This document shows, piece by piece, positions 2,774 through 20,963 of a DNA stretch of 64,000 nucleotides. The position numbers and the translations under genes were made by a program. Every line of letters starts with the position of its first letter. The first letter of the stretch is position 1. This stretch comes from Polyangiaceae bacterium. GTDB lineage: Bacteria; Myxococcota_A; Polyangia; Polyangiales; Polyangiaceae. Location of the stretch: NCBI GenBank assembly GCA_044224495.1, contig JBGAKG010000005.1, positions 236,711-300,710 on the forward strand, read 5' to 3'. Under the pieces are notes generated by a model that searched no databases, had not been told where the DNA came from, and saw nothing but the letters and a program-made list of their open reading frames with translations.

Positions 2774-3496
2774 ATGAACGTCCTTCCCGCCCCCGTCCTT
2801 CCCGCGCTTCGTGCATCACGGTTGTTCGGTGGCCTCGACGAGGACTTGCTCGGCGGATTTGCGCGCGCCGCGCACCGCGCGCGCTACAAGCGCGGCGACT
2901 ACCTCTGGCGGGCGGGTGATCCCGCCGTCGGGATCACGCTCATCGTGTCCGGCCTCGTGAAGGTGTGTCAGCCGATCCGGCCCGGCCAGACGACGATCGT
3001 CGGCATCTTCGGTCCGCGCGAGAGCCTCGGCGACATGGCGTTGGTCTCCGGGCGCGGCTACCCCGCCGACGCGGTCGTGGCGACGGAGTCGCTCGACATC
3101 GTGCGCGTGGAGCGGACCGCAGTCCTCGACGCGATGGGACGCCACGCATCGGTCGGCATGGCGATGAGCCGTTCGCTCGTCGAGCACAGCCAGAAGCTCC
3201 GCGGGAAGATCCAGATCCTCGCCGCGGGCGCGGTCGAGCAACGACTCGCCACGCTCCTCGTGCACCTCGCCGATCGCTTCGGCGACGAGCAGGAGGACGG
3301 CACCACCATCATCCCGGTCGTGCTGTCCCGCACCGAGCTCGCGTGCCTCGTCGGCACCACCGTGGAGACGACGATCCGCGTCATGAGCCGCTGGCAGAAG
3401 GCGGGCTGGATCGAGACGACGGAGGATGGCTTCGTCGTCCGCGACCTCGAGGCGCTCGAGGACGTGGAGCCGGCCTCGAAGGATTCCGCGGCCTGA
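2774..3496 (+). CDS. Crp/Fnr family transcriptional regulator (cNMP-binding domain + C-terminal HTH); candidate NnrR/Dnr-type NO-responsive regulator
   Basis: 240 aa; beta-roll effector domain, C-terminal 'LSRTELACLVGTTVETTIRVMSRWQKAGWI' HTH; GGGGGGAGG RBS 6 nt upstream. Confidence 0.8.
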   Translation: MNVLPAPVLPALRASRLFGGLDEDLLGGFARAAHRARYKRGDYLWRAGDPAVGITLIVSGLVKVCQPIRPGQTTIVGIFGPRESLGDMALVSGRGYPADAVVATESLDIVRVERTAVLDAMGRHASVGMAMSRSLVEHSQKLRGKIQILAAGAVEQRLATLLVHLADRFGDEQEDGTTIIPVVLSRTELACLVGTTVETTIRVMSRWQKAGWIETTEDGFVVRDLEALEDVEPASKDSAA

Positions 3497-3505
3497 CCGC
3501 TGGCG

Positions 3506-3958
3506 TCAGCGAAGCGCATCACCGACGCGCGCCTCCCAGCGCAGCACGCGTGGAAAGAGGTGCACGTCCTCGATCTGGACGTGCCGGTAGAGCGACGCGA
3601 CGAACGGGTGGAGGTCGGCGGCCGCCGTCGACAGCGACGCGGCGTCGTGAAGCTCGCGGAGCATGCCGAGCAGCGCCTCGTGTTCCGCTCGCATCCGGGC
3701 GATCGCCCGGACGAGCGAGCCGCTCGGCTCCCATGCCCCGCTCCGCGCGAGCTCGCGCACGCGCGTGAGCACGAGAGCCTCCTCGTTCCGCAGGTGGGCC
3801 GCCGCGTCGTGCGCGACGGCGCGGGCGAGCGGCACGAGGCGGCGGTGACGCGCGCCATCGAGCCACTCGACCGTGGAGGCGAAGGACACGAGGTCCGCGC
3901 GGGCGCTGGCGTGGCGCGCCTCGACCTCGTCGAGGAGGACGGCGAGCCCGCTCTGCAT
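3506..3958 (-). CDS. hemerythrin-like (HHE cation-binding) domain protein, RIC/DnrN-like
   Basis: ATG at 3958 overlaps stop of upstream cytochrome c gene (ATGA); repeated H-x3-E / HxxxE..H spacing (HDAAAHLRNEE, EHEALLGMLRELHD, HVQIEDVH); upstream part of ORF 3506-4198 is Arg-rich artefact. Confidence 0.55.
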   Translation of the reverse strand: MQSGLAVLLDEVEARHASARADLVSFASTVEWLDGARHRRLVPLARAVAHDAAAHLRNEEALVLTRVRELARSGAWEPSGSLVRAIARMRAEHEALLGMLRELHDAASLSTAAADLHPFVASLYRHVQIEDVHLFPRVLRWEARVGDALR

Positions 3959-4386
3959 CACTTCGCCTTGAACGACCGGATGTAGGTGACGAGCGCGTCG
4001 AGCTCGGGCTTCCCGTCGAGATCCTGGTTCGCCGGCATGGCGGGGGACTTCCCGACCGCGGCGCCGCCGTAGAGGATCGTCTTCTTGATGTCCTCGTCCT
4101 TGACGCTGTCCTGCCAAGCGGCGTTCGTGTAGTCGCGCGGCTTCGGGGTGAGCGCCGCGGCGCCGGGGCCGTCGCCCTTCCCGCTCTCGCCGTGGCACGG
4201 CGCGCAGCGGTTCTTGAAGACCTCCTTCACGTCGGCGGCCGCTGCCTGCGTCGCCGTCGGTGTGCTCGTCGTCTTCGCCGTGGTCGTTCCGCCACCGCCG
4301 CCGCCCGAGCCAGAGGTTCCGTTGTTGCAGGCGACGACGGCGAGCGCCGCGCCGAGACCGATACCGAGGAGAGATGCGAGCTTCAT
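3958..4386 (-). CDS. class I c-type cytochrome lipoprotein (single CXXCH)
   Basis: 142 aa; signal peptide with lipobox (LAVVAC), Gly/Thr-rich linker, 'CAPCHGESGKGDG' heme-binding motif; downstream of nos accessory genes. Confidence 0.75.
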   Translation of the reverse strand: MKLASLLGIGLGAALAVVACNNGTSGSGGGGGGTTTAKTTSTPTATQAAAADVKEVFKNRCAPCHGESGKGDGPGAAALTPKPRDYTNAAWQDSVKDEDIKKTILYGGAAVGKSPAMPANQDLDGKPELDALVTYIRSFKAK

Positions 4387-4420: not shown

Positions 4421-4436
4421 GATGACGGATGTCAGG
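4421..4436. promoter_or_regulatory. third TGAC-N4-GTCA box (GATGAC-GGAT-GTCAGG) upstream of cytochrome c/hemerythrin genes
   Basis: Same half-sites as the nosZ boxes; lies 35-50 nt upstream of cytochrome c ATG (4386) in the nosY-cytc spacer. Confidence 0.4.
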
Positions 4437-4447
4437 TCGGCGCAGAA

Positions 4448-5290
4448 TCAGCCGACGAGATCGTCCTTCTCGAGCCGCCGCGTCGCGCCGAGCATCGCGA
4501 GCGCGCCGACGGCGAGCGGCCAGCCCACGCCGATCGCGAGCGTGAGGCGGGCGCCGAGCGAGTTCGCGAGCCAGAAGCCGACCGGACCGAGCACCGAGAG
4601 CTCGGGATCGACGCCGGAGAGGATCGCGAGCCGCGCCGACTCGACCGGGTTCAGCGCCGCGAGAGCGAAGACCACCTGCGGCGTGAGCCGCAGCTTCAGC
4701 AGAACGCCGATGAGCGCGAAGTCGTGGAGCGCGCTCGCGAACAGCCATGCGACGAGCACGTAGACCGTCGCGCGCTCGGGCGTGCGCGCGAGCGACGAGA
4801 GCCAGAAGCCGAGCCCGACGTAGGCGAAGCTCAGCGCGAACGACACGAGCATCGTGCGCCCGACGAGCGGGAGCATGGTCGTCTCCCCCGTCACCGCACC
4901 CGCGATCCAGATCCCGAGGAGCAGGACGAACAGCGGACCGACGATCACGACGAGGCGCGCGACGACGGCCGCCGACATCCAGTCCGCGCGGCGACAAGGC
5001 TGCGAGAGGACGAGCTCGAAGAAGCCCGTCGTGCGCGAACGAACGACGGACTGCCCGGTGGAGACGAGCGCCACGAGCGGGAGCACGAGCACGACCGCGT
5101 TCGCCATGTTGAGGACGACGCGGGACAACCCCGTGAAGCCGAGCACCGAGGACTCGCGCAAGCCGAGCCAGAGGAACGCGCCGAAGACGAGGACGTAGGC
5201 GGTGGCGGTGAAGACCATCCAGCGCGAGCGGAGAGCGTCGGCGAGCTCCAGCCGAAGAAGGACGCGAAACGGTTTGGCCACGGTGCTCAT
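4448..5290 (-). CDS. nosY: ABC-2 type permease NosY
   Basis: 280 aa, six-TM ABC-2 permease; ATG overlaps nosL stop (ATGA); position in nosDF(L)Y block. Confidence 0.75.
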   Translation of the reverse strand: MSTVAKPFRVLLRLELADALRSRWMVFTATAYVLVFGAFLWLGLRESSVLGFTGLSRVVLNMANAVVLVLPLVALVSTGQSVVRSRTTGFFELVLSQPCRRADWMSAAVVARLVVIVGPLFVLLLGIWIAGAVTGETTMLPLVGRTMLVSFALSFAYVGLGFWLSSLARTPERATVYVLVAWLFASALHDFALIGVLLKLRLTPQVVFALAALNPVESARLAILSGVDPELSVLGPVGFWLANSLGARLTLAIGVGWPLAVGALAMLGATRRLEKDDLVG

Positions 5291-5688
5291 CGGGATCCCC
5301 TCGCTTTCGCGGACGACTCCACGTCCGCCCAGCTCGCGCTGCCAGCCGTCGTGGCCGCCCAGCCGAAGTCCATCGGTGTCGTCGCGCCCGGGCTGAAACG
5401 CGCCGAACGCGCGTCGACCCAGTGGCCGACGTCGTCACGCACCCACATCGCACGCACGCTCGGGTGGCGGTCGGCGACGTAGGTCGCCATGCACCCGGGG
5501 TCGTCGAAGTAGGCGCGCGTTCCGTCGGTCGTGGTGAGCTGCGCGGCGTAGCGCGGATCGCTGACCAGCATCGCGCAGCTCCCGCACGCTTGCTTGCCCC
5601 ACACCGGATCCTTGGGCGAAGCGCCGTCCTCGCACGACGTGACCGCGAGCGCGAGGCCGAGCGCGGCCCAGGCCAGGCGCGCGCTCAC
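5287..5688 (-). CDS. nosL: copper-binding lipoprotein NosL
   Basis: GTG at 5688 overlaps nosF stop (GTGA); lipoprotein signal VSARLAWAALGLALAVTSC; 'YFDDPGCM', 'CGSCAM' motifs; GC3-rich; 133 aa. Confidence 0.55.
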   Translation of the reverse strand: MSARLAWAALGLALAVTSCEDGASPKDPVWGKQACGSCAMLVSDPRYAAQLTTTDGTRAYFDDPGCMATYVADRHPSVRAMWVRDDVGHWVDARSARFSPGATTPMDFGWAATTAGSASWADVESSAKARGSR

Positions 5689-6383
5689 GACAACAGCCGG
5701 AGCCGGGGCTCCGCCTCGCGGGGCTTGCGCGCGGGCGCTTTCGAAGCGGTCTGGCGCTCGTCGCGCACGACCTTCCCATCGCGAAACTCGATGACGCGGT
5801 CGACGAGCTCCGCGACGTCCTCGCCGCGGTGCGAGCACAGGATCGTCAGGTGCTCCGACGGGCGCTGCCCGAGCCGCTCGATGAACGCGGCGCGGGCGTC
5901 GGGGTCCAGGTTCGCCGTGGGCTCGTCGCACACGAGGATCTCGGCGGGCGCCGCGAGCGCGAGCGCGGCGAGGAGCTTCTGCTTCATGCCTCCGGACAAA
6001 TCCCGGAAGCGCGTCGACGCGCAGCGCTCGACGTCGAGCCCGAGCGTCTTCGCCATCGCGCGCGCCGGCTCGTCGGCGATCCCACGCAAGGCGCAGACGG
6101 CGCGGATGACCTCCGACACGGGCGCCTCGATCGGCGGCGCGATCTGGGGGACGTACGCGATGCTCCGCAGCGCGACCTCCGGTCGCTGCGCGACGTCGAC
6201 CCCGCGTACCGTCACGACGCCGTCGACCCGGATGAGTCCGAGGATCGCGCGGAGGAGCGTCGTCTTCCCCGAGCCGTTCGCGCCGATGAAGGCGACGCGC
6301 TCGCCGCCGGCGAGCCGGAGCGAGACGTCGGCGAGCGCGACGACGGGTCCGAACTTCTTGCTCACGTGCTGGACCTCGATCAC
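5685..6383 (-). CDS. nosF: ABC transporter ATP-binding protein NosF
   Basis: 232 aa; Walker A GANGSGKT, signature LSGGMKQK, Walker B ILVCDEP; ATG overlaps nosD stop. Confidence 0.85.
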   Translation of the reverse strand: MIEVQHVSKKFGPVVALADVSLRLAGGERVAFIGANGSGKTTLLRAILGLIRVDGVVTVRGVDVAQRPEVALRSIAYVPQIAPPIEAPVSEVIRAVCALRGIADEPARAMAKTLGLDVERCASTRFRDLSGGMKQKLLAALALAAPAEILVCDEPTANLDPDARAAFIERLGQRPSEHLTILCSHRGEDVAELVDRVIEFRDGKVVRDERQTASKAPARKPREAEPRLRLLS

Positions 6384-7714
6384 TTGCTCCTCCTCTCGAA
6401 ACCATCCATCGCCGGGGACTTGTCGACGAGCATCCGATGCGTCGCCAGGACCGGTGCCGCCTGCGCGACCGCGTCCACGAGCGACATCGCCGCCGTCCCC
6501 CGGAAGTACATGAGCGACGGGTGCGCGTCGGTCAGCTCGCCCGAGAGCTGCTTCACCTCGAACGGGACGTCCCCCCGCCCGTCGCCGTCCAGGTCGTACC
6601 CCGCGTAGTCGGACCAGTGGTTCCCCTCGAACTCGACGTTCATGGCGTCGCCCCCGCCCTCGACCTCGGCCACCGTGACGTTCTCGCGGAGGTCGTTCCC
6701 GGTGAAGCGGACGCCGTCCTCGGAGCTGTGGAACCGGAGCCCAACGTCGTTCAGGGCGATCACGTTCGCGTCGAACCGCACCGGCATCGTCGGCGCGCGC
6801 GGGCTGCGATCGAGGTAGACCCCGACCGTGTTTCCCACGAGCCAGTTCCGCGCGAGCGTGACGGAATCACTCTCTTTGAAGCCAATCCCGACACCGGCCG
6901 GTCCCCGCGCACCCGCGAGCACGTTGTCTTCGACCCGGACGTGATCGCTGTACATGACGAAGATGCCGACGACGTTCTCGCGAACGTCCTCGCCGTGGAT
7001 GTAGGCGTCGTGCGCGTACATGAGGTGCGCGCCGTAGCGGCTGTGACGGACGACGTTCGCGTCGAGCTCGACGCGCCGCGAGTACCAGACGACCAAGTCC
7101 CGCGAGTGATCCAGCACGCAGCTCCGCACGACCGAGTCGGAGGACTCCCAGAGCTTGATGCCGTCGCCGCGGAGCTCCTCGTCGTCGCCGGGCCCGATCA
7201 CGCGGACGCGCTCGAGCGTGCAGTGCGGACACGGACCGAGCGAGACCCCGAACAGGGTGTCCTCGACCCGGGCGTCGGCGATCCGGACGCGCGCGCCTTT
7301 GACCTTGATCCCCGCGTCTTCGGCGGTGTGTCGATGCCCCGAGTGCCGGACGACCACGTTCTCGACGGTGACGTCGTCCGCTTCGATCATGAGCACGGTG
7401 CCGCGCCCGGTGCCCTCGAGCTCTGCGCCGAGCTCGCCGCGGAGCGTGAGCGAGCGCTTGATCGTGAAGTCCCCCCGGTACGTGTGGCCGCGGAGCCAGA
7501 TGACGTCGGGCCCGCTGGCGAGCGCCGCGGCCAGGCTCGCCTCGTCCTCCGCCACGAAGACCCCGCCGGGCGCGGTCCGCGCGACGGGGTTCGCGTCGGC
7601 CGGGAGCGGTGCCGGCCCGACGAGCGTCGGGCTCGCGGCGTGGGCTCGGTAGAGCACCATCGTCGCGAGCGCCACGCCACCGAGCATCCAGAGAGCACGC
7701 TTCCGGCCGAGCAC
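6380..7714 (-). CDS. nosD: periplasmic copper-binding protein NosD (right-handed beta-helix)
   Basis: 444 aa; signal peptide; repeated beta-helix segments (NVV..HS, GIKV, NVVR.) typical of NosD/CASH domain. Confidence 0.85.
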   Translation of the reverse strand: MLGRKRALWMLGGVALATMVLYRAHAASPTLVGPAPLPADANPVARTAPGGVFVAEDEASLAAALASGPDVIWLRGHTYRGDFTIKRSLTLRGELGAELEGTGRGTVLMIEADDVTVENVVVRHSGHRHTAEDAGIKVKGARVRIADARVEDTLFGVSLGPCPHCTLERVRVIGPGDDEELRGDGIKLWESSDSVVRSCVLDHSRDLVVWYSRRVELDANVVRHSRYGAHLMYAHDAYIHGEDVRENVVGIFVMYSDHVRVEDNVLAGARGPAGVGIGFKESDSVTLARNWLVGNTVGVYLDRSPRAPTMPVRFDANVIALNDVGLRFHSSEDGVRFTGNDLRENVTVAEVEGGGDAMNVEFEGNHWSDYAGYDLDGDGRGDVPFEVKQLSGELTDAHPSLMYFRGTAAMSLVDAVAQAAPVLATHRMLVDKSPAMDGFERRSK

Positions 7715-7715
7715 G

Positions 7716-8447
7716 TCAGGCCTCCTTCGGGCGGTGCGGACCGACCAGCGAGCGCGGACACACCGTGCCGCAGGCCGCCTTGTCGGCGCAGTCGTTGCAG
7801 ACCTTCCGCCGCACCAACGTCGCTGCCAAGAGGAGCGCGACGCCCCCCATCGCGACCCAGAAGCCTGCCGAGGGGGTCGCGAACGTCATGAACTGCCCGA
7901 TCTGCCCGTTGCCGAACAGCTGGGGCGTGAACGGCGGGATGCGGAGCGGTGCATGCGGATCCAGGGAGTGCCCAAAATGGTACAGCCAGTAGAAGGCATC
8001 ACCCAGGAACCCGAGCGGGAACGCGAGCCCGACCGCCGTCAGGAGCTTTCCCGCGCGACGCCCGGCGAGCAGCGCGACGCCGAGCACCAGCACGCCGACG
8101 AGGCCGATGCCCCACCCGGCGAGCTCGCGCTCGTGCTTCGCTGCGTCGTCGAGGCTCGCCATGCCGATGTAGTGGTTCAGCATGTTGATCTCGTGTACGT
8201 CGCCCCCCATCCCCGTGAGCGAGATCGTCAGATGAAGGCCGTGGGGGTACTGCGGCGCGTAGAGCGTGAAGTCCCACCACGGCAGGAAGAACGAGCCCGC
8301 ATAGAGCGCGATCGCGCTCACCGCGAGCAGCACCACGGCCCAACGCAGGCCGGTGTGCCGCTTGGGCGTCCCAGCCTGCGCCGGCACCACCGCCAGGTGG
8401 CGGTGGCCGTCGCTCTTCTCTTCGACCGCGGTCGTCATGGCGTTCAC
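7716..8447 (-). CDS. nosB: NosB-like integral membrane protein (clade II nos accessory) with C-terminal Cys cluster
   Basis: 243 aa, multiple TM helices, C-terminal CNDCADKAACGTVCP; ATG overlaps nosZ stop (ATGA); immediately downstream of Sec-type nosZ as in clade II clusters. Confidence 0.55.
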   Translation of the reverse strand: MNAMTTAVEEKSDGHRHLAVVPAQAGTPKRHTGLRWAVVLLAVSAIALYAGSFFLPWWDFTLYAPQYPHGLHLTISLTGMGGDVHEINMLNHYIGMASLDDAAKHERELAGWGIGLVGVLVLGVALLAGRRAGKLLTAVGLAFPLGFLGDAFYWLYHFGHSLDPHAPLRIPPFTPQLFGNGQIGQFMTFATPSAGFWVAMGGVALLLAATLVRRKVCNDCADKAACGTVCPRSLVGPHRPKEA

Positions 8448-10435
8448 TTCTTCGGCTTGACGAGCAGGTAGCCGACCATCTCGAGGTGGAGCGCCGAGCA
8501 GAACTCGGTGCAGTAGAACGGATAGGCACCCGGCATGTCGGCCTTGAACGAGATGTTCTCGTGCTTGCCGGGCTCGAGGCTCACGTTGACGTTGTAGAGG
8601 TTGACCTCGAAGCCGTGGACCTGGTCCTCGGCCTGCTCGAGGCTGGTGACGTGGATGTTGACGGTGTCGCCCTCGTCCACCTCGATTCGGTCCGGCGTGA
8701 AGTGGCTACGGACCGCCGTCATGTAGACGTCGACCACGTTGCCGTTGCGGACGATCCGCTCCTTGCCGCCCTCGGTCGCGTTCGGGTCCTTCTGGTCGGT
8801 GATGACGTTCGTCCCCGGCGCGTACATCTTCAGCGGCTTCAGCTTGTCGGTCTTGATCATCTGCGAGTAGTGGGGCTCGCCGAAGCCGATCGGCATGTCG
8901 TAGAGGAGCCGCATCTTCTCGCCCGTGATGTCGATGAGCTGGAAGTTCTGCGGGTAGAGCGGACCGACGCCGGTGAAGCGGTCGATCGACATCTTGTTCA
9001 TTGCGACGACGTACTTGCCGTCGGGGCTGACGGTGTCGCCCTCGGCCGCGAGGATGTGTCCGATGTTGTAGTGGACCGAGATCTTCTCGATCTGCTTCAT
9101 GTCCTTGACGCTCCACTTCACGACCTTGCTCTCGAGGAAGAGCGAGGTGTAGCCGTTCATCTGGTCGTCGAAGACCGTGTGGAGCGGGCCGAGGCCGAGC
9201 TCGACCTGACCGCGGATCGAATCCTTGAAGGGGAGGATCGGGATGCCGTAGGCGTCCTTGCCCTCGAACTTCTTCTGCGCGATGAGGTCCTTGACCTTGG
9301 AGAACTCGTACAGCGTCGCGTGCGTGTCGAGCTTGCCGCCGACGACGACCGCGGTGCCGTCCGGCGTCACGTCGCAGCCGTGCGGGCTCTTCGGCTCGCC
9401 GATGAGCGTGAGGACGCCCTCTTCGCCGCTCACCGCGAGCGGGAGGACCTTCATCCCCTTGATCGTGACGGCCTTGCCGGCGTTCACGAGCTCCTCGGCT
9501 TTGCGCCAGTTGATGACGTGGAGGTAGTCCATGTCGTTCTGGGAGGCGCCGCTCTCGATCGCCGGCTTGCCCTCGAGCGTGCCGCCGATCGCCATCTCGG
9601 TGTTGAACGAGTTGATGAACACCCAACCGTCCGAGACGAGCTTGCCCGCGTCGGCGAGATCCTGCGTGTACGGCGGGAGCTCGACGCCGAAGCTCTTCTC
9701 CGGATCGATCCGCTTCTTCGCGCGGTCGAACTTCCAGAACATGGCGAGCCCGCGCCACTTCTCCTTGTACTGCTCGATCGGCACGTACTCGCGCCCGAGC
9801 GGCGACGGGTACTGCGTCGTCTCGATCACGTAGTCGGTGTTCGGCGTCACGAACGCGCCGCCGTGGTCGCTCGCGACGAGCGGGTTGGCGACGATCTGCT
9901 TCGTGACGAAGTCCTCGAGATCGACGACCGCGACGCGCGCGTTCGCCTTGTCGTTCACGAAGAGGAACTGGCCGTCGTAGTCACCCTTCGTCTCGGAGAG
10001 GTTCGGGTGGTGAACGTCGGCCCACGTGATTTTGTGGTTTCCCTGCGCACCTCCGGCGATGACCTTGTCCGTCTCGCCGCCGTAGCCGTAGCCCTGCCAC
10101 GGCTCGGGGGTGAACACGCCGATGAGCTTCAAGAGGCGCATCGACGGGACACCGATCGCGGCGACCTGGCCGGAGTGGCCGCCCGACGCGAAGATCATGT
10201 AGTCGTCCTTCTTGCCGGTCGGGACGTAGGTCTTGAGCGCCCCTTCGACGTCGGCCTCGGTGAGACCGCGGGCCGCCATCAAGTCCTTGATGTTGGCCGA
10301 CGCGCCGAGGTTCGAGCTCCCGCCTTGCTGTTCCTTCGCCTGTTGCTCTGCCTTGTTCGTGCACGACGCCCCGGCGACGGTCCCCGCGCCGATCACGATG
10401 AGCGCCAGCGCTCCTCGTTTCCACCAAGAACCCAT
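8444..10435 (-). CDS. nosZ: nitrous-oxide reductase NosZ, Sec-dependent (clade II) type
   Basis: 663 aa from ATG 10435 (GGAGG 7 nt upstream); N-terminal Sec/lipoprotein-like signal MGSWWKRGALALIVIGAGTVAGASC with no twin-Arg motif; seven-bladed propeller region; C-terminal cupredoxin CuA site '...YCTEFCSALHLEM'; no C-terminal cytochrome domain. Confidence 0.9.
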   Translation of the reverse strand: MGSWWKRGALALIVIGAGTVAGASCTNKAEQQAKEQQGGSSNLGASANIKDLMAARGLTEADVEGALKTYVPTGKKDDYMIFASGGHSGQVAAIGVPSMRLLKLIGVFTPEPWQGYGYGGETDKVIAGGAQGNHKITWADVHHPNLSETKGDYDGQFLFVNDKANARVAVVDLEDFVTKQIVANPLVASDHGGAFVTPNTDYVIETTQYPSPLGREYVPIEQYKEKWRGLAMFWKFDRAKKRIDPEKSFGVELPPYTQDLADAGKLVSDGWVFINSFNTEMAIGGTLEGKPAIESGASQNDMDYLHVINWRKAEELVNAGKAVTIKGMKVLPLAVSGEEGVLTLIGEPKSPHGCDVTPDGTAVVVGGKLDTHATLYEFSKVKDLIAQKKFEGKDAYGIPILPFKDSIRGQVELGLGPLHTVFDDQMNGYTSLFLESKVVKWSVKDMKQIEKISVHYNIGHILAAEGDTVSPDGKYVVAMNKMSIDRFTGVGPLYPQNFQLIDITGEKMRLLYDMPIGFGEPHYSQMIKTDKLKPLKMYAPGTNVITDQKDPNATEGGKERIVRNGNVVDVYMTAVRSHFTPDRIEVDEGDTVNIHVTSLEQAEDQVHGFEVNLYNVNVSLEPGKHENISFKADMPGAYPFYCTEFCSALHLEMVGYLLVKPKK

Positions 10436-10516
10436 GATTGCCTCCACCCTGCACAGCGCCACCACGGCACCCTCGTCGCAGGTGAGGAGACAGTGCGGTC
10501 CGCGCAGGGCGATCGC

Positions 10517-10532
10517 CATGACGGGTGTCATC
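10517..10532. promoter_or_regulatory. FNR/Dnr-like palindromic box cATGAC-GGGT-GTCATc in nosZ / nosB2 divergent promoter
   Basis: Perfect inverted repeat TGAC-N4-GTCA, one mismatch per half-site from TTGAT-N4-ATCAA; located 82-97 nt upstream of nosZ ATG. Confidence 0.45.
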
Positions 10533-10582
10533 TCCAAACACGCGTTCGGCGCAAACCTTGCGCCCGAACGAGCACGGGGACC

Positions 10583-10598
10583 GATGACGGGCGTCATC
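10583..10598. promoter_or_regulatory. second FNR/Dnr-like box GATGAC-GGGC-GTCATC in the same divergent promoter
   Basis: Perfect 6-4-6 inverted repeat, 66 bp from the first copy, 34-49 nt upstream of nosB-paralog ATG 10632. Confidence 0.45.
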
Positions 10599-10631
10599 GA
10601 TCCCGGCGCGCGAACGGCTCACCCTCGGTCC

Positions 10632-11282
10632 ATGAAGGACCGCGAGCTCTCGGGGTTTTATCGCTTCCTCGCCCAGCCGTTGTTCTTCCGCGCGCGCTTC
10701 GTCGTCGGTGCGCTGAGCGTGCTGTTGGCGGCGGCCTTCGCGTTCCCCCTGTGGCGGGTCGAAATCGCTGCGCCGCAATATCCGCGGGGGCTCACGCTCG
10801 AGGTCTACGCCCACGCGCTGGAGAGCGGCCACGGCGGAGCCGACCTCCGCGATCTGAACGTGCTCCATCAGTTCTTCGGGATGCGCGCGCTCGACGACGG
10901 CGCGCTCGGCGATCTCGCGTGGCTCCCGTTCGCGCTCGGGTTGCTCGTGATCTTGGGCCTGCGTTGCGCGGCGATCGGCGAGGTCCGCTCGCTGATCGAT
11001 CTGGTGGTGACGAGCCTGTACGTCGCGGCGTTCACGCTCGTGCGCTTCGCGCTCGTGCTGCGGCGCTTCGGGGAGCTCGATCCCGACGCTCCGGTGAAGG
11101 TGGCGCCGTTCACGCCGCCGATGGTCGGGACCGCGACCGCAGGCGAAGTGACCTCGCACGCGTCGTTCGGGCTCGGGACCTGGTTCGCGCTCGCGTTCGG
11201 CCTCGGGATCCTCGCCACGCTCGTCGTCCACTTGGTGCGCGGGCGCCGCGCCCAGGCGGCCGAGCCGGAGCAGAAGGCGTGA
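10632..11282 (+). CDS. NosB-like membrane protein, paralog of 7716-8447
   Basis: 216 aa from ATG 10632 (alt. ATG 10584 lies inside the FNR-like box); clear paralogy to nosB product (APQYP.GL, LN.LH.F.GM, LDD, DPxAP..PFTP blocks conserved); divergent from nosZ. Confidence 0.6.
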   Translation: MKDRELSGFYRFLAQPLFFRARFVVGALSVLLAAAFAFPLWRVEIAAPQYPRGLTLEVYAHALESGHGGADLRDLNVLHQFFGMRALDDGALGDLAWLPFALGLLVILGLRCAAIGEVRSLIDLVVTSLYVAAFTLVRFALVLRRFGELDPDAPVKVAPFTPPMVGTATAGEVTSHASFGLGTWFALAFGLGILATLVVHLVRGRRAQAAEPEQKA

Positions 11283-12187
11283 AGCGCCTCGCACTCGCGC
11301 TCGCGTTCGGCTTCGTCGCGGCCTGCGATCGGACGACGCCCTCCCCGGAGACGAAGGCGCGCGAGAATGACGCTGCCGCGATGGCGACGGCACCAGCCGC
11401 GCCGGCATGCACGCCACGGAGCGCGGAGAAGCTCGGGTTCCCGTTCCTCCGCATCTGTCCGCCCGGCGAGGCAGGTTTCTGGATCAACGCGGCGCCGATG
11501 GGGTGCTCCGCCGGCGACCACGACTCCATCCGTTGTCCGCTCGTGACGGCGGTCGCGCACCCGGCCCGTCAGCCCGGCGCAGCGATCCCTTCGAGCGCCG
11601 CCGCGGTGATCGACGCGGAGACGGCGGCGCGCCTCTGCTACTTCCGGATGGGCGGTCACCTCGCGTCGCGCGCCGAGCGCGCGAAGGCGCGGGCGGCAGC
11701 GGGGTTGGTCACCGTCCTCGTGACCGAGTCCGAGTCGGCCGCCGGGCGCTTCGGCTTCGACGAGCTCCCGGAGTGGGTCTTCGAGGAGAGCGGCGCGTCC
11801 TGCGAGAACGCTCTCCCGAGCGAGTCGTGCCACACCGGGCTCTACCCTTCGACGGCGCGGAGCGCGGCGGTACCGTGGACCGCCGTGCGCGCGTGCGAGG
11901 CCACGTTCGGAGCGCGCCGGCCCGACGGGCTCTCGCTCGTCGCGCTGGGCGAGCGGTGCCCTTCCCCGCCGCTCGCGCTCGACGGCGGTGCGCTCGCGAC
12001 GGTTCCGTGCGCGCTACGAAGCGCCGCCACCGATCCGAACGGCATCCCGTCGCCGGCCGCGTTCACGTTCGCCTGCCGGCGCCCGGCGCCGAGCGCGCAC
12101 CCCGAGGGCGTCGCGCCCGACGTCGCCGCCTACCGCTGCGTGATCCCCGAGAACGCCCTCGGCACGTTCGACGTGCCGGGGCGCTGA
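11279..12187 (+). CDS. Cys-rich secreted lipoprotein, hypothetical; possible FGE/SUMF1-like fold (weak)
   Basis: GTG 11279 overlaps nosB-paralog stop (GTGA); lipoprotein signal VKRLALALAFGFVAAC; GC3-rich throughout; 'CYFRMGG' and 'PEWVFEE' segments loosely resemble FGE-domain motifs; 12 Cys. Confidence 0.5.
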   Translation: MKRLALALAFGFVAACDRTTPSPETKARENDAAAMATAPAAPACTPRSAEKLGFPFLRICPPGEAGFWINAAPMGCSAGDHDSIRCPLVTAVAHPARQPGAAIPSSAAAVIDAETAARLCYFRMGGHLASRAERAKARAAAGLVTVLVTESESAAGRFGFDELPEWVFEESGASCENALPSESCHTGLYPSTARSAAVPWTAVRACEATFGARRPDGLSLVALGERCPSPPLALDGGALATVPCALRSAATDPNGIPSPAAFTFACRRPAPSAHPEGVAPDVAAYRCVIPENALGTFDVPGR

Positions 12188-12209
12188 GTCTGCACTCCGA
12201 ACCGAGCGC

Positions 12210-12794
12210 TCACTTCTTCGGCGGGAGGATCACCGTGTCGACGACGTGCACGATGCCGTTCATCACCCGAATGGAGGCGACGATCGTGGCGTCGTCGACC
12301 ATGGTCTTTCCGTCCTTCACGTGGAACGTGACCTTGGTCCCGTCCGCCATCGCGAGCGTCTGCCCGTCCTTCATGTCCTTCGTCTCGAGGATCGGGACCG
12401 CGGCGTGGTGCTGGAGGATGAGCTTCAGGTCGGTCCGGTGCTCGGGCTTCATGAGGTCGTCGAGCGTGCCCTTCGGCAGCTTGTCGAACGCCGCGTTCGT
12501 GGGCGCGAACACCGTGTAGACGCCGCCCGGGCTCGCGAGGGACTCGACCAGATCGGCGGTCTGGAGCGCCGTCACGAGGGTCGTGTGATCCTTCGAGCCG
12601 ACCGCGACGTCGACGACGGTCTTCTCGTTGTCGGGCTTCGGGGCGGCGGGGGCGGTCGCCGTGGGCGCCGCGGTCGTTGCGACGGCAGCGGATTTCGCCG
12701 AGGCCGACCCCGCGGCCGCGGACGTCTCGGATTTGTCTTCACAGGCGACGGCAGCGGTGAGGAGCAGGACAGCGACGAACGAAAACGTCTTCAT
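12210..12794 (-). CDS. fasciclin (FAS1) domain lipoprotein
   Basis: 194 aa from ATG 12794 (GGGAGG RBS); lipobox LTAAVAC; 'TVFAPTNAAF', 'ILQHH' FAS1 motifs. Confidence 0.75.
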   Translation of the reverse strand: MKTFSFVAVLLLTAAVACEDKSETSAAAGSASAKSAAVATTAAPTATAPAAPKPDNEKTVVDVAVGSKDHTTLVTALQTADLVESLASPGGVYTVFAPTNAAFDKLPKGTLDDLMKPEHRTDLKLILQHHAAVPILETKDMKDGQTLAMADGTKVTFHVKDGKTMVDDATIVASIRVMNGIVHVVDTVILPPKK

Positions 12795-12859
12795 GGAGGG
12801 ACCTCCCGGTGCGGAAGCCTCGCCATGTGGCGCCCCAGGCGCCATGACGGACGTCAGGG

Positions 12860-14467
12860 TCACCCCCGCGCGCGCTTCAGCCGCCGCATGAGCCCACCGC
12901 CGACCTCCTCGAGCTCCGGGCTCCGAAGGGCCCAGGCCGCCACCCCGAACCCTGCCGCGAACGCGACGCCAGCCACCAGACCCGGCAGGAGCGTGCCGTG
13001 GCCCGAGAGAAGCCGTGCGCTCCCCCACCCCATCGCGCCGCCAATGCCAGACGCCGCCAGCGTGCGGGCCACCGAGCCTCCAATCTCCGCCCCTTCGAGC
13101 CCGCGGAGCTTCCGCCGCGCCGCGATCCAGAGGAGCAGCATCTGCACGAAGCTCGAGCCCGCGACCGCCGCGCTGATCCCGGCGTGGCCCATCGGCCCCC
13201 GCAGCCCGACCGCGAGCGCGATGAACACGAGCAAGTCGATCACGCTCACCACGACCGGGGTCTTCGTGTCGCCCATCGCGTGGAACACCGGCACGAGCTG
13301 GCGCACCGCCGACACGGTCCAGATCGCGCCGCCCTGCCAGAGGAGCGAGCGCGCAGTCTCGGTCGTGGCGCGCGCGTCGAAGTGCCCGCGCTGGAACAAG
13401 AGCGCCACGAGCGGCTCACCCAGCGCGACCAGCGCCACGCTGCACGGGATCGCGACGAAGAGCGCGAGCCGCATCCCGTGCGCCCACGTCTTTCGGACCT
13501 CGTCGATCGCGCCCTTCGCCGCGAGCGCGCTGAGCGAGGGGAGCGCCGCCGTCGAGATCGCCATCACGAAGATGCCCTGCGGGAAGTCGCAGAGGCGCAT
13601 CGCCCACGAGAACCAGCTCTGCGGTCCCTCGCCGAGCTCGGAGAGAAACCGGCGCGAGATCACGAGGTCGACGTAGTAGACGCCGATGCCGAACGTCATC
13701 GGTAGGAGGCGCCGAAGCGCCTCGCGCACGCCCGGATCGGCGAAGTCGAGCTTCGGCCGCCCGAAGAACCCAATCGCGCGGAGCGCGGGCCACTGCGCGA
13801 CGACCTGGAGCGCGCCACCCACGAGCGCGCCGACCGCGAGCGCGAGCGAACGGTCGATGCCGGCCGCTGCCAGCGGTCCGGGGAGCGCGAACGCCGCGAT
13901 CAGGAACGCGACGTTCAGGAGCGCCGGGGCGAACGCCGCGACGCCGAAGCGCCGCTTCGCGTTGAGCGCCGCCATGCCGAGCGCGGCGGTCCCCATGAAG
14001 AAGATGTACGGGAACACCCAGCGCGTGAGCTCCACCGTGCGCTCGAACTGGGCGCCCTCGTAGCCGCCCGCGAAGAGCGCGGTGAGCGGACGCGCGAAGA
14101 CGACGCCCAAGATCGTGACGACGGTGAGCGCGAGGAGCGACGCGCCGCGGATGCGCGCGAAGAACGCCTTTCCCGCCTCGTCGCCCTCGGTCGCGAGCTT
14201 GCCGGAGAGCACCGGAACGACCGCGCTCGAGATCGCGCCCTCGCCCAGGATCTGGCGGAGCGCGTTCGGGATCGTGAAGGCGACGAAGAACGCGTCGGTC
14301 TCGGCGCGCCCGAAGATCGCGGCGAGCGCCATGTCGCGCCCGAGCCCGAGCACGCGCGACGCCAGCGTGCCGGCGCCGATGATGCCCGCGCGCCCGGCGA
14401 GCTTCTTCCGCTCCGCCGCTCCCTCGGCGCTGGCGTCCTTCGGCTCGCCACGAGCGGGCTCGGTCAT
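12860..14467 (-). CDS. murJ: lipid II flippase MurJ (MviN)
   Basis: 535 aa from ATG 14467; 14-TM MOP-superfamily product with conserved N-terminal 'GTLASRVLGLGRDMALAAIFG' block; 12860-14806 ORF upstream part is Arg-rich artefact. Confidence 0.85.
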   Translation of the reverse strand: MTEPARGEPKDASAEGAAERKKLAGRAGIIGAGTLASRVLGLGRDMALAAIFGRAETDAFFVAFTIPNALRQILGEGAISSAVVPVLSGKLATEGDEAGKAFFARIRGASLLALTVVTILGVVFARPLTALFAGGYEGAQFERTVELTRWVFPYIFFMGTAALGMAALNAKRRFGVAAFAPALLNVAFLIAAFALPGPLAAAGIDRSLALAVGALVGGALQVVAQWPALRAIGFFGRPKLDFADPGVREALRRLLPMTFGIGVYYVDLVISRRFLSELGEGPQSWFSWAMRLCDFPQGIFVMAISTAALPSLSALAAKGAIDEVRKTWAHGMRLALFVAIPCSVALVALGEPLVALLFQRGHFDARATTETARSLLWQGGAIWTVSAVRQLVPVFHAMGDTKTPVVVSVIDLLVFIALAVGLRGPMGHAGISAAVAGSSFVQMLLLWIAARRKLRGLEGAEIGGSVARTLAASGIGGAMGWGSARLLSGHGTLLPGLVAGVAFAAGFGVAAWALRSPELEEVGGGLMRRLKRARG

Positions 14468-17930: not shown

Positions 17931-18662
17931 TCAGCGGGGCTCGCCGCGCAGCTCGTCCTTGGTGCCGAGCAGGATGTAGAGGCGGCGGAGGGCATCCAGA
18001 TCGGGGATCTCGACCTTCTCGCCCGAGATGCGCAGGTAGCCCTGCTCGCGGAGGCGCTGGACGCTCCGCTTCACGGTGTCCACGTCGAGCCCGACGCGGC
18101 TGGAGAGCTCGACCGGCGAGACCTGAATCTCGGCCAGGTTCTCGGTGGTGCCAGCGCGGTGCGCGATCTTGAGGAGCGCGCTGACGACCTTGAACTGGTT
18201 GTCGCGGAGGAGGAGGACCTCGATCTGGTCCTCGGCGTCGCGGACGCGACGGATGAGCTGCTCCATCACGCGGATGGCGACGGGCGGGTAGTTGACGAGC
18301 ATCGACCGGAACGTGCGGCGGTCCAGCGCGAGGGCGACCCCGTCGGTCAGGGCCACCGCGGTCGAGTTGCGGGCCGCTGCGTCGAGCAGGGCCGACTCGC
18401 CGAACAGATCGCCGGGCTTCAGCACGATGAGGCTGCGCTCGATCATGCGCACGCGCTTGAGGAGACGGACACGCCCCTCCTGGAGCAAGAACGCGTCGCC
18501 GGCGGCTTCGCCCTCCTTGAAGAGGGTCTCGCCCGCCGCGAACGACCGCCCGTACTTCTGGACGAGCCGGTTCTTCTCGCTCTCTTCGAGCGCGGTGTCC
18601 TCGTCCTCGCCACGCCGGGAATCCGCCATCGGTCCGCGAATGTACCCGGCTTTGGGCGCCAC
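17931..18662 (-). CDS. Crp/Fnr family transcriptional regulator
   Basis: 243 aa; cNMP-binding beta-roll (GETLFKEGEAAGDAFLLQEGRV), C-terminal HTH. Confidence 0.8.
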   Translation of the reverse strand: MAPKAGYIRGPMADSRRGEDEDTALEESEKNRLVQKYGRSFAAGETLFKEGEAAGDAFLLQEGRVRLLKRVRMIERSLIVLKPGDLFGESALLDAAARNSTAVALTDGVALALDRRTFRSMLVNYPPVAIRVMEQLIRRVRDAEDQIEVLLLRDNQFKVVSALLKIAHRAGTTENLAEIQVSPVELSSRVGLDVDTVKRSVQRLREQGYLRISGEKVEIPDLDALRRLYILLGTKDELRGEPR

Positions 18663-20881: not shown

Positions 20882-20963
20882 TGCGAAGGGCGGGACTTGA
20901 ACCCGCACGGTGTTACCCGCTAGCACCTCAAGCTAGTGCGTCTGCCAATTCCGCCACCTTCGC
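20882..20963 (-). tRNA. tRNA-Leu (anticodon GAG), 82 nt with long variable arm
   Basis: Minus-strand sequence GCGAAGGTGGCGGAATTGGCAGACGCACTAGCTTGAGGTGCTAGCG...GGTTCAAGTCCCGCCCTTCGCA; 7-bp acceptor stem, TPsiC arm GGTTCAAGTCC, anticodon loop CTTGAGG; very similar to E. coli tRNA-Leu. Confidence 0.8.

Follow-up and report, generated by a model that had tools for sequence, protein, structure and literature searches.

A pair of overlapping genes, coding for an inner-membrane protein of the NosB type (NosB2) and a cysteine-rich lipoprotein (Lipo), is located divergently from the nitrous oxide (N2O) reductase gene nosZ in a 64,000-nucleotide stretch of DNA from a Polyangiaceae bacterium (contig JBGAKG010000005.1, positions 236,711 to 300,710; this whole stretch is called the window, and coordinates follow its own numbering). 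NosB2 and Lipo are translationally coupled and co-inherited, and their role as a nos accessory module is plausible. We propose, giving the idea about an even chance, that they form a conserved two-subunit module of inner membrane and periplasm, which in myxobacteria of the Polyangia type assists the clade II N2O-reductase system. What appears to be new here is a distinct NosB subfamily whose lipoprotein partner had not been described before.

Among the accessory genes of clade II N2O reducers, which form the dominant N2O sink in the environment, NosB is the hallmark. Wolinella succinogenes, the single organism in which this was tested, cannot respire N2O without NosB (Hein et al. 2017, as cited in PMC9697520 and PMC13274427). 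Two signature stretches, LNHYIGM and YGH(N), are known from the alignment of van Spanning (quoted in PMC9697520), and for the role of the protein both electron transport and management of copper have been considered (PMC9697520). In Bacteroidota, namely Dyadobacter and Flavobacterium, NosB is also found fused to NosL (PMC9697520).

NosB2 and its separation from canonical NosB

Both open reading frames (ORFs) were judged to be real because of their codon-position composition: the G+C content of third codon positions (GC3) is 0.92 in NosB2 and 0.90 in Lipo, compared with 0.63-0.80 in overlapping alternative ORFs. Both products also have conserved homologues. The TGA stop codon of NosB2 (11280-11282) overlaps the GTG start codon of Lipo (11279) by four nucleotides, as GTGA, so this part of the initial annotation, a NosB-like gene whose stop overlaps the start of a 302-amino-acid cysteine-rich lipoprotein, was correct.

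The same annotation described NosB2 as a duplicate of the NosB-like gene downstream of nosZ. Homology of the two products is well founded. BLASTP aligned NosB2 with NosB of the window at 32% identity over 174 amino acids (E=2e-17), and comparison of the two family profiles with hhalign gave a probability of about 100% (E=3.8e-38, 178 columns), with the blocks APQYP.GL, LN..GM..LDD and LDP.AP...PFTP, on which the original claim was based, present in the profile alignment. Kyte-Doolittle hydropathy revealed four hydrophobic segments in NosB2 (residues about 23-45, 98-120, 124-142 and 184-202), matched by those of NosB; following the positive-inside rule, both termini are predicted to be cytoplasmic and the conserved motifs to lie in two periplasmic loops. 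NosB2 is thus like clade II NosB in its homology over about 175 residues, the layout of four transmembrane (TM) segments, the same periplasmic-loop blocks and a clade II nosZ as neighbour. Searches of Pfam, NCBIfam and PDB sequences with NosB, NosB2 and Lipo returned only noise, and the NosL family PF05573 matched neither NosB2 nor Lipo. Many homologues of NosB and NosB2 carry the labels "copper chaperone NosL" (JGI) or "cytochrome C" (NCBI), names that were probably transferred from NosB-NosL and NosB-NosC fusions and that can mislead surveys.

The word "duplicated" is misleading, because the two proteins belong to different subfamilies. NosB2 is not a recent duplicate of NosB, and the separation of the two subfamilies is an old one. 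A search with NosB2 yielded 67 clusters; most are from Myxococcota, and Pfam recognises a domain in none of them. A search with canonical NosB yielded 497, and a neighbour-joining tree separates the NosB2 family, as a monophyletic group, from canonical NosB. In myxobacteria, every canonical NosB that was aligned (21) or sampled (40) ends in a cytoplasmic tail with four invariant cysteines, VCxxCx5-6Cx3C(P), which was found in none of the 67 NosB2-family proteins. The NosB2 family has instead its own TM2-TM3 motif, W[LI]PF..G...(L)R.A..G.[VI]R.L.DL, absent from NosB. Further, unlike canonical nosB, placed between nosZ and nosD, the NosB2 gene of the window is divergently transcribed and coupled to a lipoprotein gene. 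The four-cysteine tail itself (last about 30 residues of NosB in the window; also P0079-P0198) resembles a ferredoxin-type or metal-binding tail, and no description of it was found in the searchable literature. A literature search likewise found no second type of NosB described.

Members of the NosB2 family without an adjacent Lipo show where the subfamily is placed elsewhere. All six such genes on long contigs (L011, L013, L031, L065, L066 and the P0049 contig; L numbers designate fetched loci) are the last gene of a cytC-nosZ-nosD-F-L-Y operon, and no nosB follows nosZ in any of these operons. It follows that the subfamily truly belongs to nos, as an alternative NosB of myxobacterial clusters. 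The ORFs that overlap or adjoin these operon-closing genes are varied: a 162-amino-acid secreted protein without Pfam match in L013 (10675-11163), a YwiC-like membrane protein in L065 (9657-10409), and ScdA with a multihaem cytochrome in L066 (9716-11711). NosB2 may therefore take different partners.

Both published NosB signatures are degenerate in NosB2 of the window, where they read LHQFFGM and FG-E. They are also degenerate in several of the nearest Lipo-linked relatives (YGTE in L003, LNQSMGV in L015), are kept in most other members of the family and are strictly kept in the operon-closing genes. Loss of one or both signature histidines, together with the long branches of these sequences, would fit a decaying redundant paralogue that is kept by linkage, with canonical NosB doing the work and the pair having no N2O role here. 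Decay is however at odds with an intact ORF of high GC3 whose overlap with Lipo is preserved, with a TM2-TM3 motif retained in full (WLPF..G..LR.AAIG.VRSL.D), with an architecture kept by relatives at 55-65% identity and with a conserved operator upstream; we consider it the least credible of the explanations weighed in this paper. The loss of the histidines in the presence of canonical NosB suggests subfunctionalisation of NosB2 to a Lipo-specific scaffold.

Lipo, a disulfide-rich lipoprotein with a predicted C-type-lectin-like core

The N-terminus of Lipo, MKRLALALAFGFVAAC (followed by D), is a signal peptide ending in a lipobox, VAAC, that fits the pattern [LVI][ASTVI][GAS]C, and cysteine occupies the lipobox position in most family members. 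The protein contains 13 cysteines, namely Cys16 of the lipobox and 12 near-invariant others. Its family is small: only 11 close clusters were found among 5.8 billion proteins, and a HMMER profile search of 1.84 billion proteins returned 63 representatives, all of about 270-310 amino acids. A metagenome scan was run with a 13-sequence subset of the 54-sequence family alignment. None of the 54 aligned members matched Pfam, NCBIfam or PDB sequences at E<=10, and a literature search found no description of the lipoprotein.

Structure prediction with AlphaFold2 from an 11-sequence alignment gave a predicted local distance difference test score (pLDDT) of 47 and was unusable; remote relatives were added, and the 54-sequence alignment gave a model with pLDDT 88 and a predicted template modelling score (pTM) of 0.83. 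Structural matches to this model were the C-terminal domains of Bdellovibrio Bd2740 (8oks, score 7.4) and Legionella Lcl (8q4e, 6.0), TvpA (2y3c, 5.9), CLEC12A (5.8), PvdO (5hha, 5.8), a group comprising OvoA, ToxD, SenA and EgtB (about 4.4-5.8), and SUMF2 (1y4j, 4.8). They span about 85-125 residues, roughly one third of Lipo; Foldseek searches of PDB and BFVD with the model gave no significant match. Facing the periplasm and stabilised by disulfides, Lipo is a lipoprotein whose core, according to the model, has a binding fold of C-type-lectin-like kind.

The initial annotation had noticed segments resembling the formylglycine-generating enzyme (FGE, SUMF1) and suggested a copper-binding protein. 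The Lipo family consensus, TAHR.C..RFGGRLPTR.ER....ELPEWV, contains a motif of the "RLPT..E" type, as do Bd2740, Lcl (DUF1566), TvpA, PvdO and SUMF2; in the window protein it is degenerate (HLASRAE). This consensus resembles the signature RLPT..E/WEW by which FGE and DUF1566 domains are known. Taken with the structural matches, it suggests that the FGE-like segments may reflect a true fold relationship, though Lipo is not an FGE-family protein: the FGE domain PF03781 gave no match to Lipo at E<=0.1 and none to the 54 family members at E<=10, and no FGE proteins are among its HMMER relatives in 1.84 billion proteins. Lipo also differs from proteins of lectin/FGE fold by the lack of a sequence-profile relationship, by the limited part of it that is covered, by extra N- and C-terminal beta-rich, disulfide-bonded parts and by the apparent lack of FGE catalytic features. 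The window encodes no classical FGE-domain protein, with the motif RLPT..EWE, to which Lipo could be compared.

The conserved cysteines behave as structural ones. Their rare losses in the family come pairwise (44/60, 175/184, 227/244, 266/287), while C76/C86 and C120/C206 are invariant or nearly so, with one loss of C120 (P0251). This pattern fits six structural disulfides and argues against a cysteine-thiolate copper centre; C120-C206 would be the typical alpha1-beta5 disulfide of C-type lectins. A candidate site for a metal or ligand that is specific to the family is offered only by the invariant loop C76-S-A-G-E-H81-x4-C86, and no cupredoxin or other metal-site fold was found among the structural matches.

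A precedent exists for an FGE-family protein encoded together with a denitrification enzyme: NirV accompanies the copper enzyme NirK in the nirK operon of Rhodobacter sphaeroides (PMC1262709; 10.1101/2021.05.21.445229). Lipo is loosely analogous, being a protein of predicted lectin-like fold whose gene lies beside that of a periplasmic denitrification enzyme containing copper and is probably regulated together with it. It is unlike NirV in not being a member of PF03781, in its enzyme (NosZ instead of NirK) and in having a membrane-protein partner, which NirV lacks. With this precedent, the FGE-like consensus and a C76-x4-H81-x4-C86 loop that could in principle bind metal, Lipo might be thought an FGE/SUMF1-type copper protein, either a copper-dependent oxidase or a copper chaperone, delivering or processing copper for NosZ. 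The missing FGE matches, the pairwise loss of cysteines and the degenerate RLPT motif of the window protein all count against this reading, and disruption of nirV itself had no effect on what the paper words as "nitrate reduction" (PMC1262709). We find it very unlikely.

Conservation of the pair and a shared putative operator

The pair was mapped by tblastn of the nos proteins of the window on 66 fetched loci. NosB2 is located directly upstream of Lipo and in the same direction in about 19 distinct loci; the two genes are convergent in one, L009. An ATGA or GTGA overlap is present in 11 of the 17 pair loci examined, and the other six have gaps of 0-10 nt. Relatives at 55-65% identity share the architecture of the window.

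About half of the informative pair loci lie in or beside nos clusters, in several arrangements. The pair is divergent from nosZ in the window, and in L015/L016 it is found 2.7 kb upstream of nosZ-nosB-DFLY-cytC-Fas (Fas, fasciclin gene), a cluster that includes canonical nosB. The order cytC-NosB2-Lipo, with a cytC orthologue immediately before the pair, occurs in L008 and L061, and Fas-NosB2-Lipo in L051. In L031, L026 and L034, Lipo and NosB2 occupy opposite ends of one cluster, Lipo-Fas-...-cytC-nosZDFLY-NosB2, and L056/L057 have nosZ-nosB-DFLY-cytC-Lipo. In L006, L020, L022, L023, L025, L029 and L033 the flanks of the pair, 7-10 kb in each direction, contain no nos gene. The flanks of these pair-only loci contain no other conserved genes; the two-gene cassette is therefore the unit of selection. 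The association of the pair with nos is recurrent, not obligatory.

A further link with nos is provided by a palindrome. TGAC-N4-GTCA occurs exactly four times in the window compared with 0.68 expected, and none of 100 shuffles reached four. Each copy is intergenic and falls within the nos region (Table 1), and most have the extended form ATGAC-N4-GTCAT. Two are present between nosZ and NosB2. Although the ORF of nosZ could extend as far as 10597, its probable start is the ATG at 10435, which is preceded by GGAGG (GGAGG-N5-ATG); this leaves 196 bp between the divergent genes. Relatives L003, L004 and L006 have a palindrome about 40.5 nt before NosB2, and one is found upstream of NosB2 in L008 and L009 too. 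Together with the spacing of about 41.5 nt from the start codons, the fact that neither NosB2 nor cytC is preceded by a Shine-Dalgarno sequence suggests class II activation and leaderless transcripts. The window also encodes a CRP/FNR-family regulator adjoining the nos cluster (2774-3496), which lacks the N-terminal cysteine cluster of FNR and is therefore FixK/Dnr-like. This protein is the candidate binder of the palindromes, and palindromes and regulator together point to one regulon comprising nosZ(BDFLY), cytC, NosB2-Lipo and the fasciclin gene.

Scans of 10300-12950 for sigma-70 promoters and intrinsic terminators found none. A sigma-54-like element, GGCAC-N5-TCGCA (at about 10462), upstream of NosB2 is weak and not conserved in relatives, and it was not relied on. 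In distant relatives, sigma-54 enhancer-binding regulators adjoin nos, some of them with GAF, response-regulator or protoglobin-kinase partners; their presence there, in contrast to the CRP/FNR operator here, suggests regulatory rewiring within Myxococcota.

Several points weigh against a dedicated role of the pair in N2O reduction. At least seven pair loci, including L006 with its palindrome, have no nos gene in their 7-10 kb flanks. Near distant relatives of Lipo (28-35% identity), neither NosB2 nor any nos gene is found, and the neighbourhoods of these relatives have no conserved genes in common. Many nos clusters with a NosB2-type gene have no Lipo. The disappearance of both signature histidines from NosB2 of the window could also mean that NosB function was lost, and the assignment of the regulator to the operator is inferred.

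Some of these points favour a general cell-envelope module, serving envelope or glycan binding or another cuproenzyme, for which the placement at nosZ would be one of many: about half of the informative loci are without nos within 7-10 kb and have unconserved flanks, distant Lipo relatives stand alone beside unrelated genes such as TetR regulators, and structurally Lipo is best matched by the tips of adhesins or lectins (the C-terminal domains of Bd2740 and Lcl, C-type lectins). Such a module would not explain why NosB2-family genes unpaired with Lipo sit inside nos operons, why Lipo occurs in nos clusters even without adjacent NosB2 (L031, L026, L056), or why the operator common to nosZ, cytC and the fasciclin gene is confined to the nos region of the window. 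We regard a general envelope role as possible but doubtful. The initial annotation, which placed the pair in an accessory maturation or electron-transfer module sharing the nosZ control region, is thus partly supported. Its shared control region holds, with two palindrome copies in 196 bp, and the pair is conserved in relatives, repeatedly with clade II nos clusters. The module idea is supported by conservation of the pair and its nos linkage and is weakened by the half of the loci lying more than 7-10 kb from nos; the copper/FGE idea does not hold.

The window has a G+C content of 71%, and its closest relatives are metagenome-assembled genomes of Polyangiaceae/Polyangiales. It contains a complete clade II nos cluster on the minus strand, and the NosB2-Lipo pair, encoded by the plus strand, lies beyond nosZ (Table 1). 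murJ is also located just beyond Lipo, near the fasciclin gene. Fasciclin genes recur at myxobacterial nos clusters, often adjoining Lipo or NosB2 (seven loci), and a literature search found no paper connecting fasciclin to nos clusters. Genes of the hemerythrin or ScdA type (iron-centre repair) are repeatedly found beside nos as well.

Table 1. Features of the window, and genes recurring at nos clusters of related loci
Feature	Position	Strand	Evidence or remark
CRP/FNR-family regulator	2774-3496	+	Pfam cNMP_binding, HTH_Crp_2, Crp; weak NCBIfam FixK/FnrL/Fnr matches
Hemerythrin-domain gene flanking the nos cluster	3506-3958	-	Pfam PF01814, 4.4e-07
cytC, monohaem cytochrome c, final gene of the nos cluster	3958-4386	-	Pfam Cytochrom_C
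Palindrome TGACGGATGTCA	4423-4434		centre about 42 nt before cytC start 4386
nosY	4448-5290	-	ORF list; tblastn synteny with other nos clusters
nosL	5287 to about 5721	-	weak Pfam NosL match
nosF	5685-6383	-	ORF list; tblastn synteny with other nos clusters
nosD	6380-7714	-	Pfam NosD
nosB, canonical	7716-8447	-	LNHYIGM and FGHS motifs; C-terminal VCNDCADKAACGTVCP tail
nosZ, clade II Sec-type N2O reductase	8444-10435	-	TIGR04246 844 bits; Pfam nos_propeller and cupredoxin
Palindrome copy 1, TGACGGGTGTCA, extended form	10519-10530		nosZ/NosB2 intergenic; centre about 89 nt before nosZ ATG
Palindrome copy 2, TGACGGGCGTCA	10585-10596		nosZ/NosB2 intergenic; centre 41.5 nt before NosB2 ATG
NosB2, 216-aa NosB-subfamily inner-membrane protein	10632-11282	+	BLASTP, hhalign, hydropathy, GC3 0.92
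Lipo, 302-aa lipoprotein	11279-12187	+	lipobox VAAC, Cys16; core with predicted C-type-lectin-like fold
Fasciclin (FAS1) domain gene	12210-12794	-	Pfam Fasciclin 3.6e-29; convergent with Lipo
Palindrome TGACGGACGTCA	12845-12856		centre about 56 nt before fasciclin start 12794
Second CRP/FNR-family regulator gene	17931-18662	-	
tRNA	20882-20963	-	sole Rfam match in the window
Fasciclin genes in related loci	L011 1082-1639; L013 11243-11737; L015 20571-; L026 4049-4450; L031 1665-2060; L034 3324-3725; L051 1-339		
Sigma-54 activators in related loci	L015 11594-14034; L011 2259-3836; L013 2457-4076; L065 11165-13727; L066 1595-3163		
Hemerythrin or ScdA-type genes in related loci	L011 1728-2180; L013 1649-2311; L066 9716-10381		

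Proposed function and meaning for NosB biology

We propose the following role for the NosB2-Lipo accessory. A regulator of the FixK/Dnr type within the CRP/FNR family, probably the one encoded at 2774-3496, would co-induce four transcription units, headed by nosZ, cytC, NosB2-Lipo and the fasciclin gene. NosB2 would be a NosB-type membrane subunit that anchors or serves Lipo in the periplasm, by analogy to the way NosB is thought to serve NosL, and Lipo the disulfide-rich binding subunit of the predicted complex. The complex may support maturation or maintenance of NosZ by docking or by supply of copper or electrons, with no catalysis of its own. Canonical NosB is also present in the lineage, and NosB2 would have become subfunctionalised towards a scaffold specific for Lipo.

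The closest precedent is presented by the NosB-NosL fusions, in which a NosB-type membrane module is likewise coupled to a periplasmic lipoprotein-type partner in nos context. NosB2-Lipo differs from them in its partner, which is Lipo and not NosL (a separate nosL is present in the window), and in being joined by a four-nucleotide gene overlap instead of a fusion. The habitual coupling of NosB2 to Lipo, parallel to these fusions, supports the view that NosB proteins act via periplasmic partners. In a bolder form, which we think unlikely, NosB-type proteins would be generic membrane docking or transfer subunits, each with its dedicated periplasmic lipoprotein, by NosL fusion in Bacteroidota and by Lipo coupling in Polyangia. 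Lipo would then be a new NosZ maturation factor whose C76-x4-H81-x4-C86 loop handles copper or sulfide for assembly of CuA/CuZ, with fasciclin as third component. If true, this would give the first mechanistic handle on the role of NosB.

Some consequences hold also without this extension. The NosB2 family is a distinct NosB subfamily able to replace canonical NosB in nos operons, and a survey that looks for nosB beside nosZ would score many clusters of myxobacteria wrongly. Concrete objects for tests are now at hand in the two small proteins of the pair, the operator and the candidate regulator. Within a narrow taxonomic range, the pair may offer a tractable handle on the question of what NosB does.

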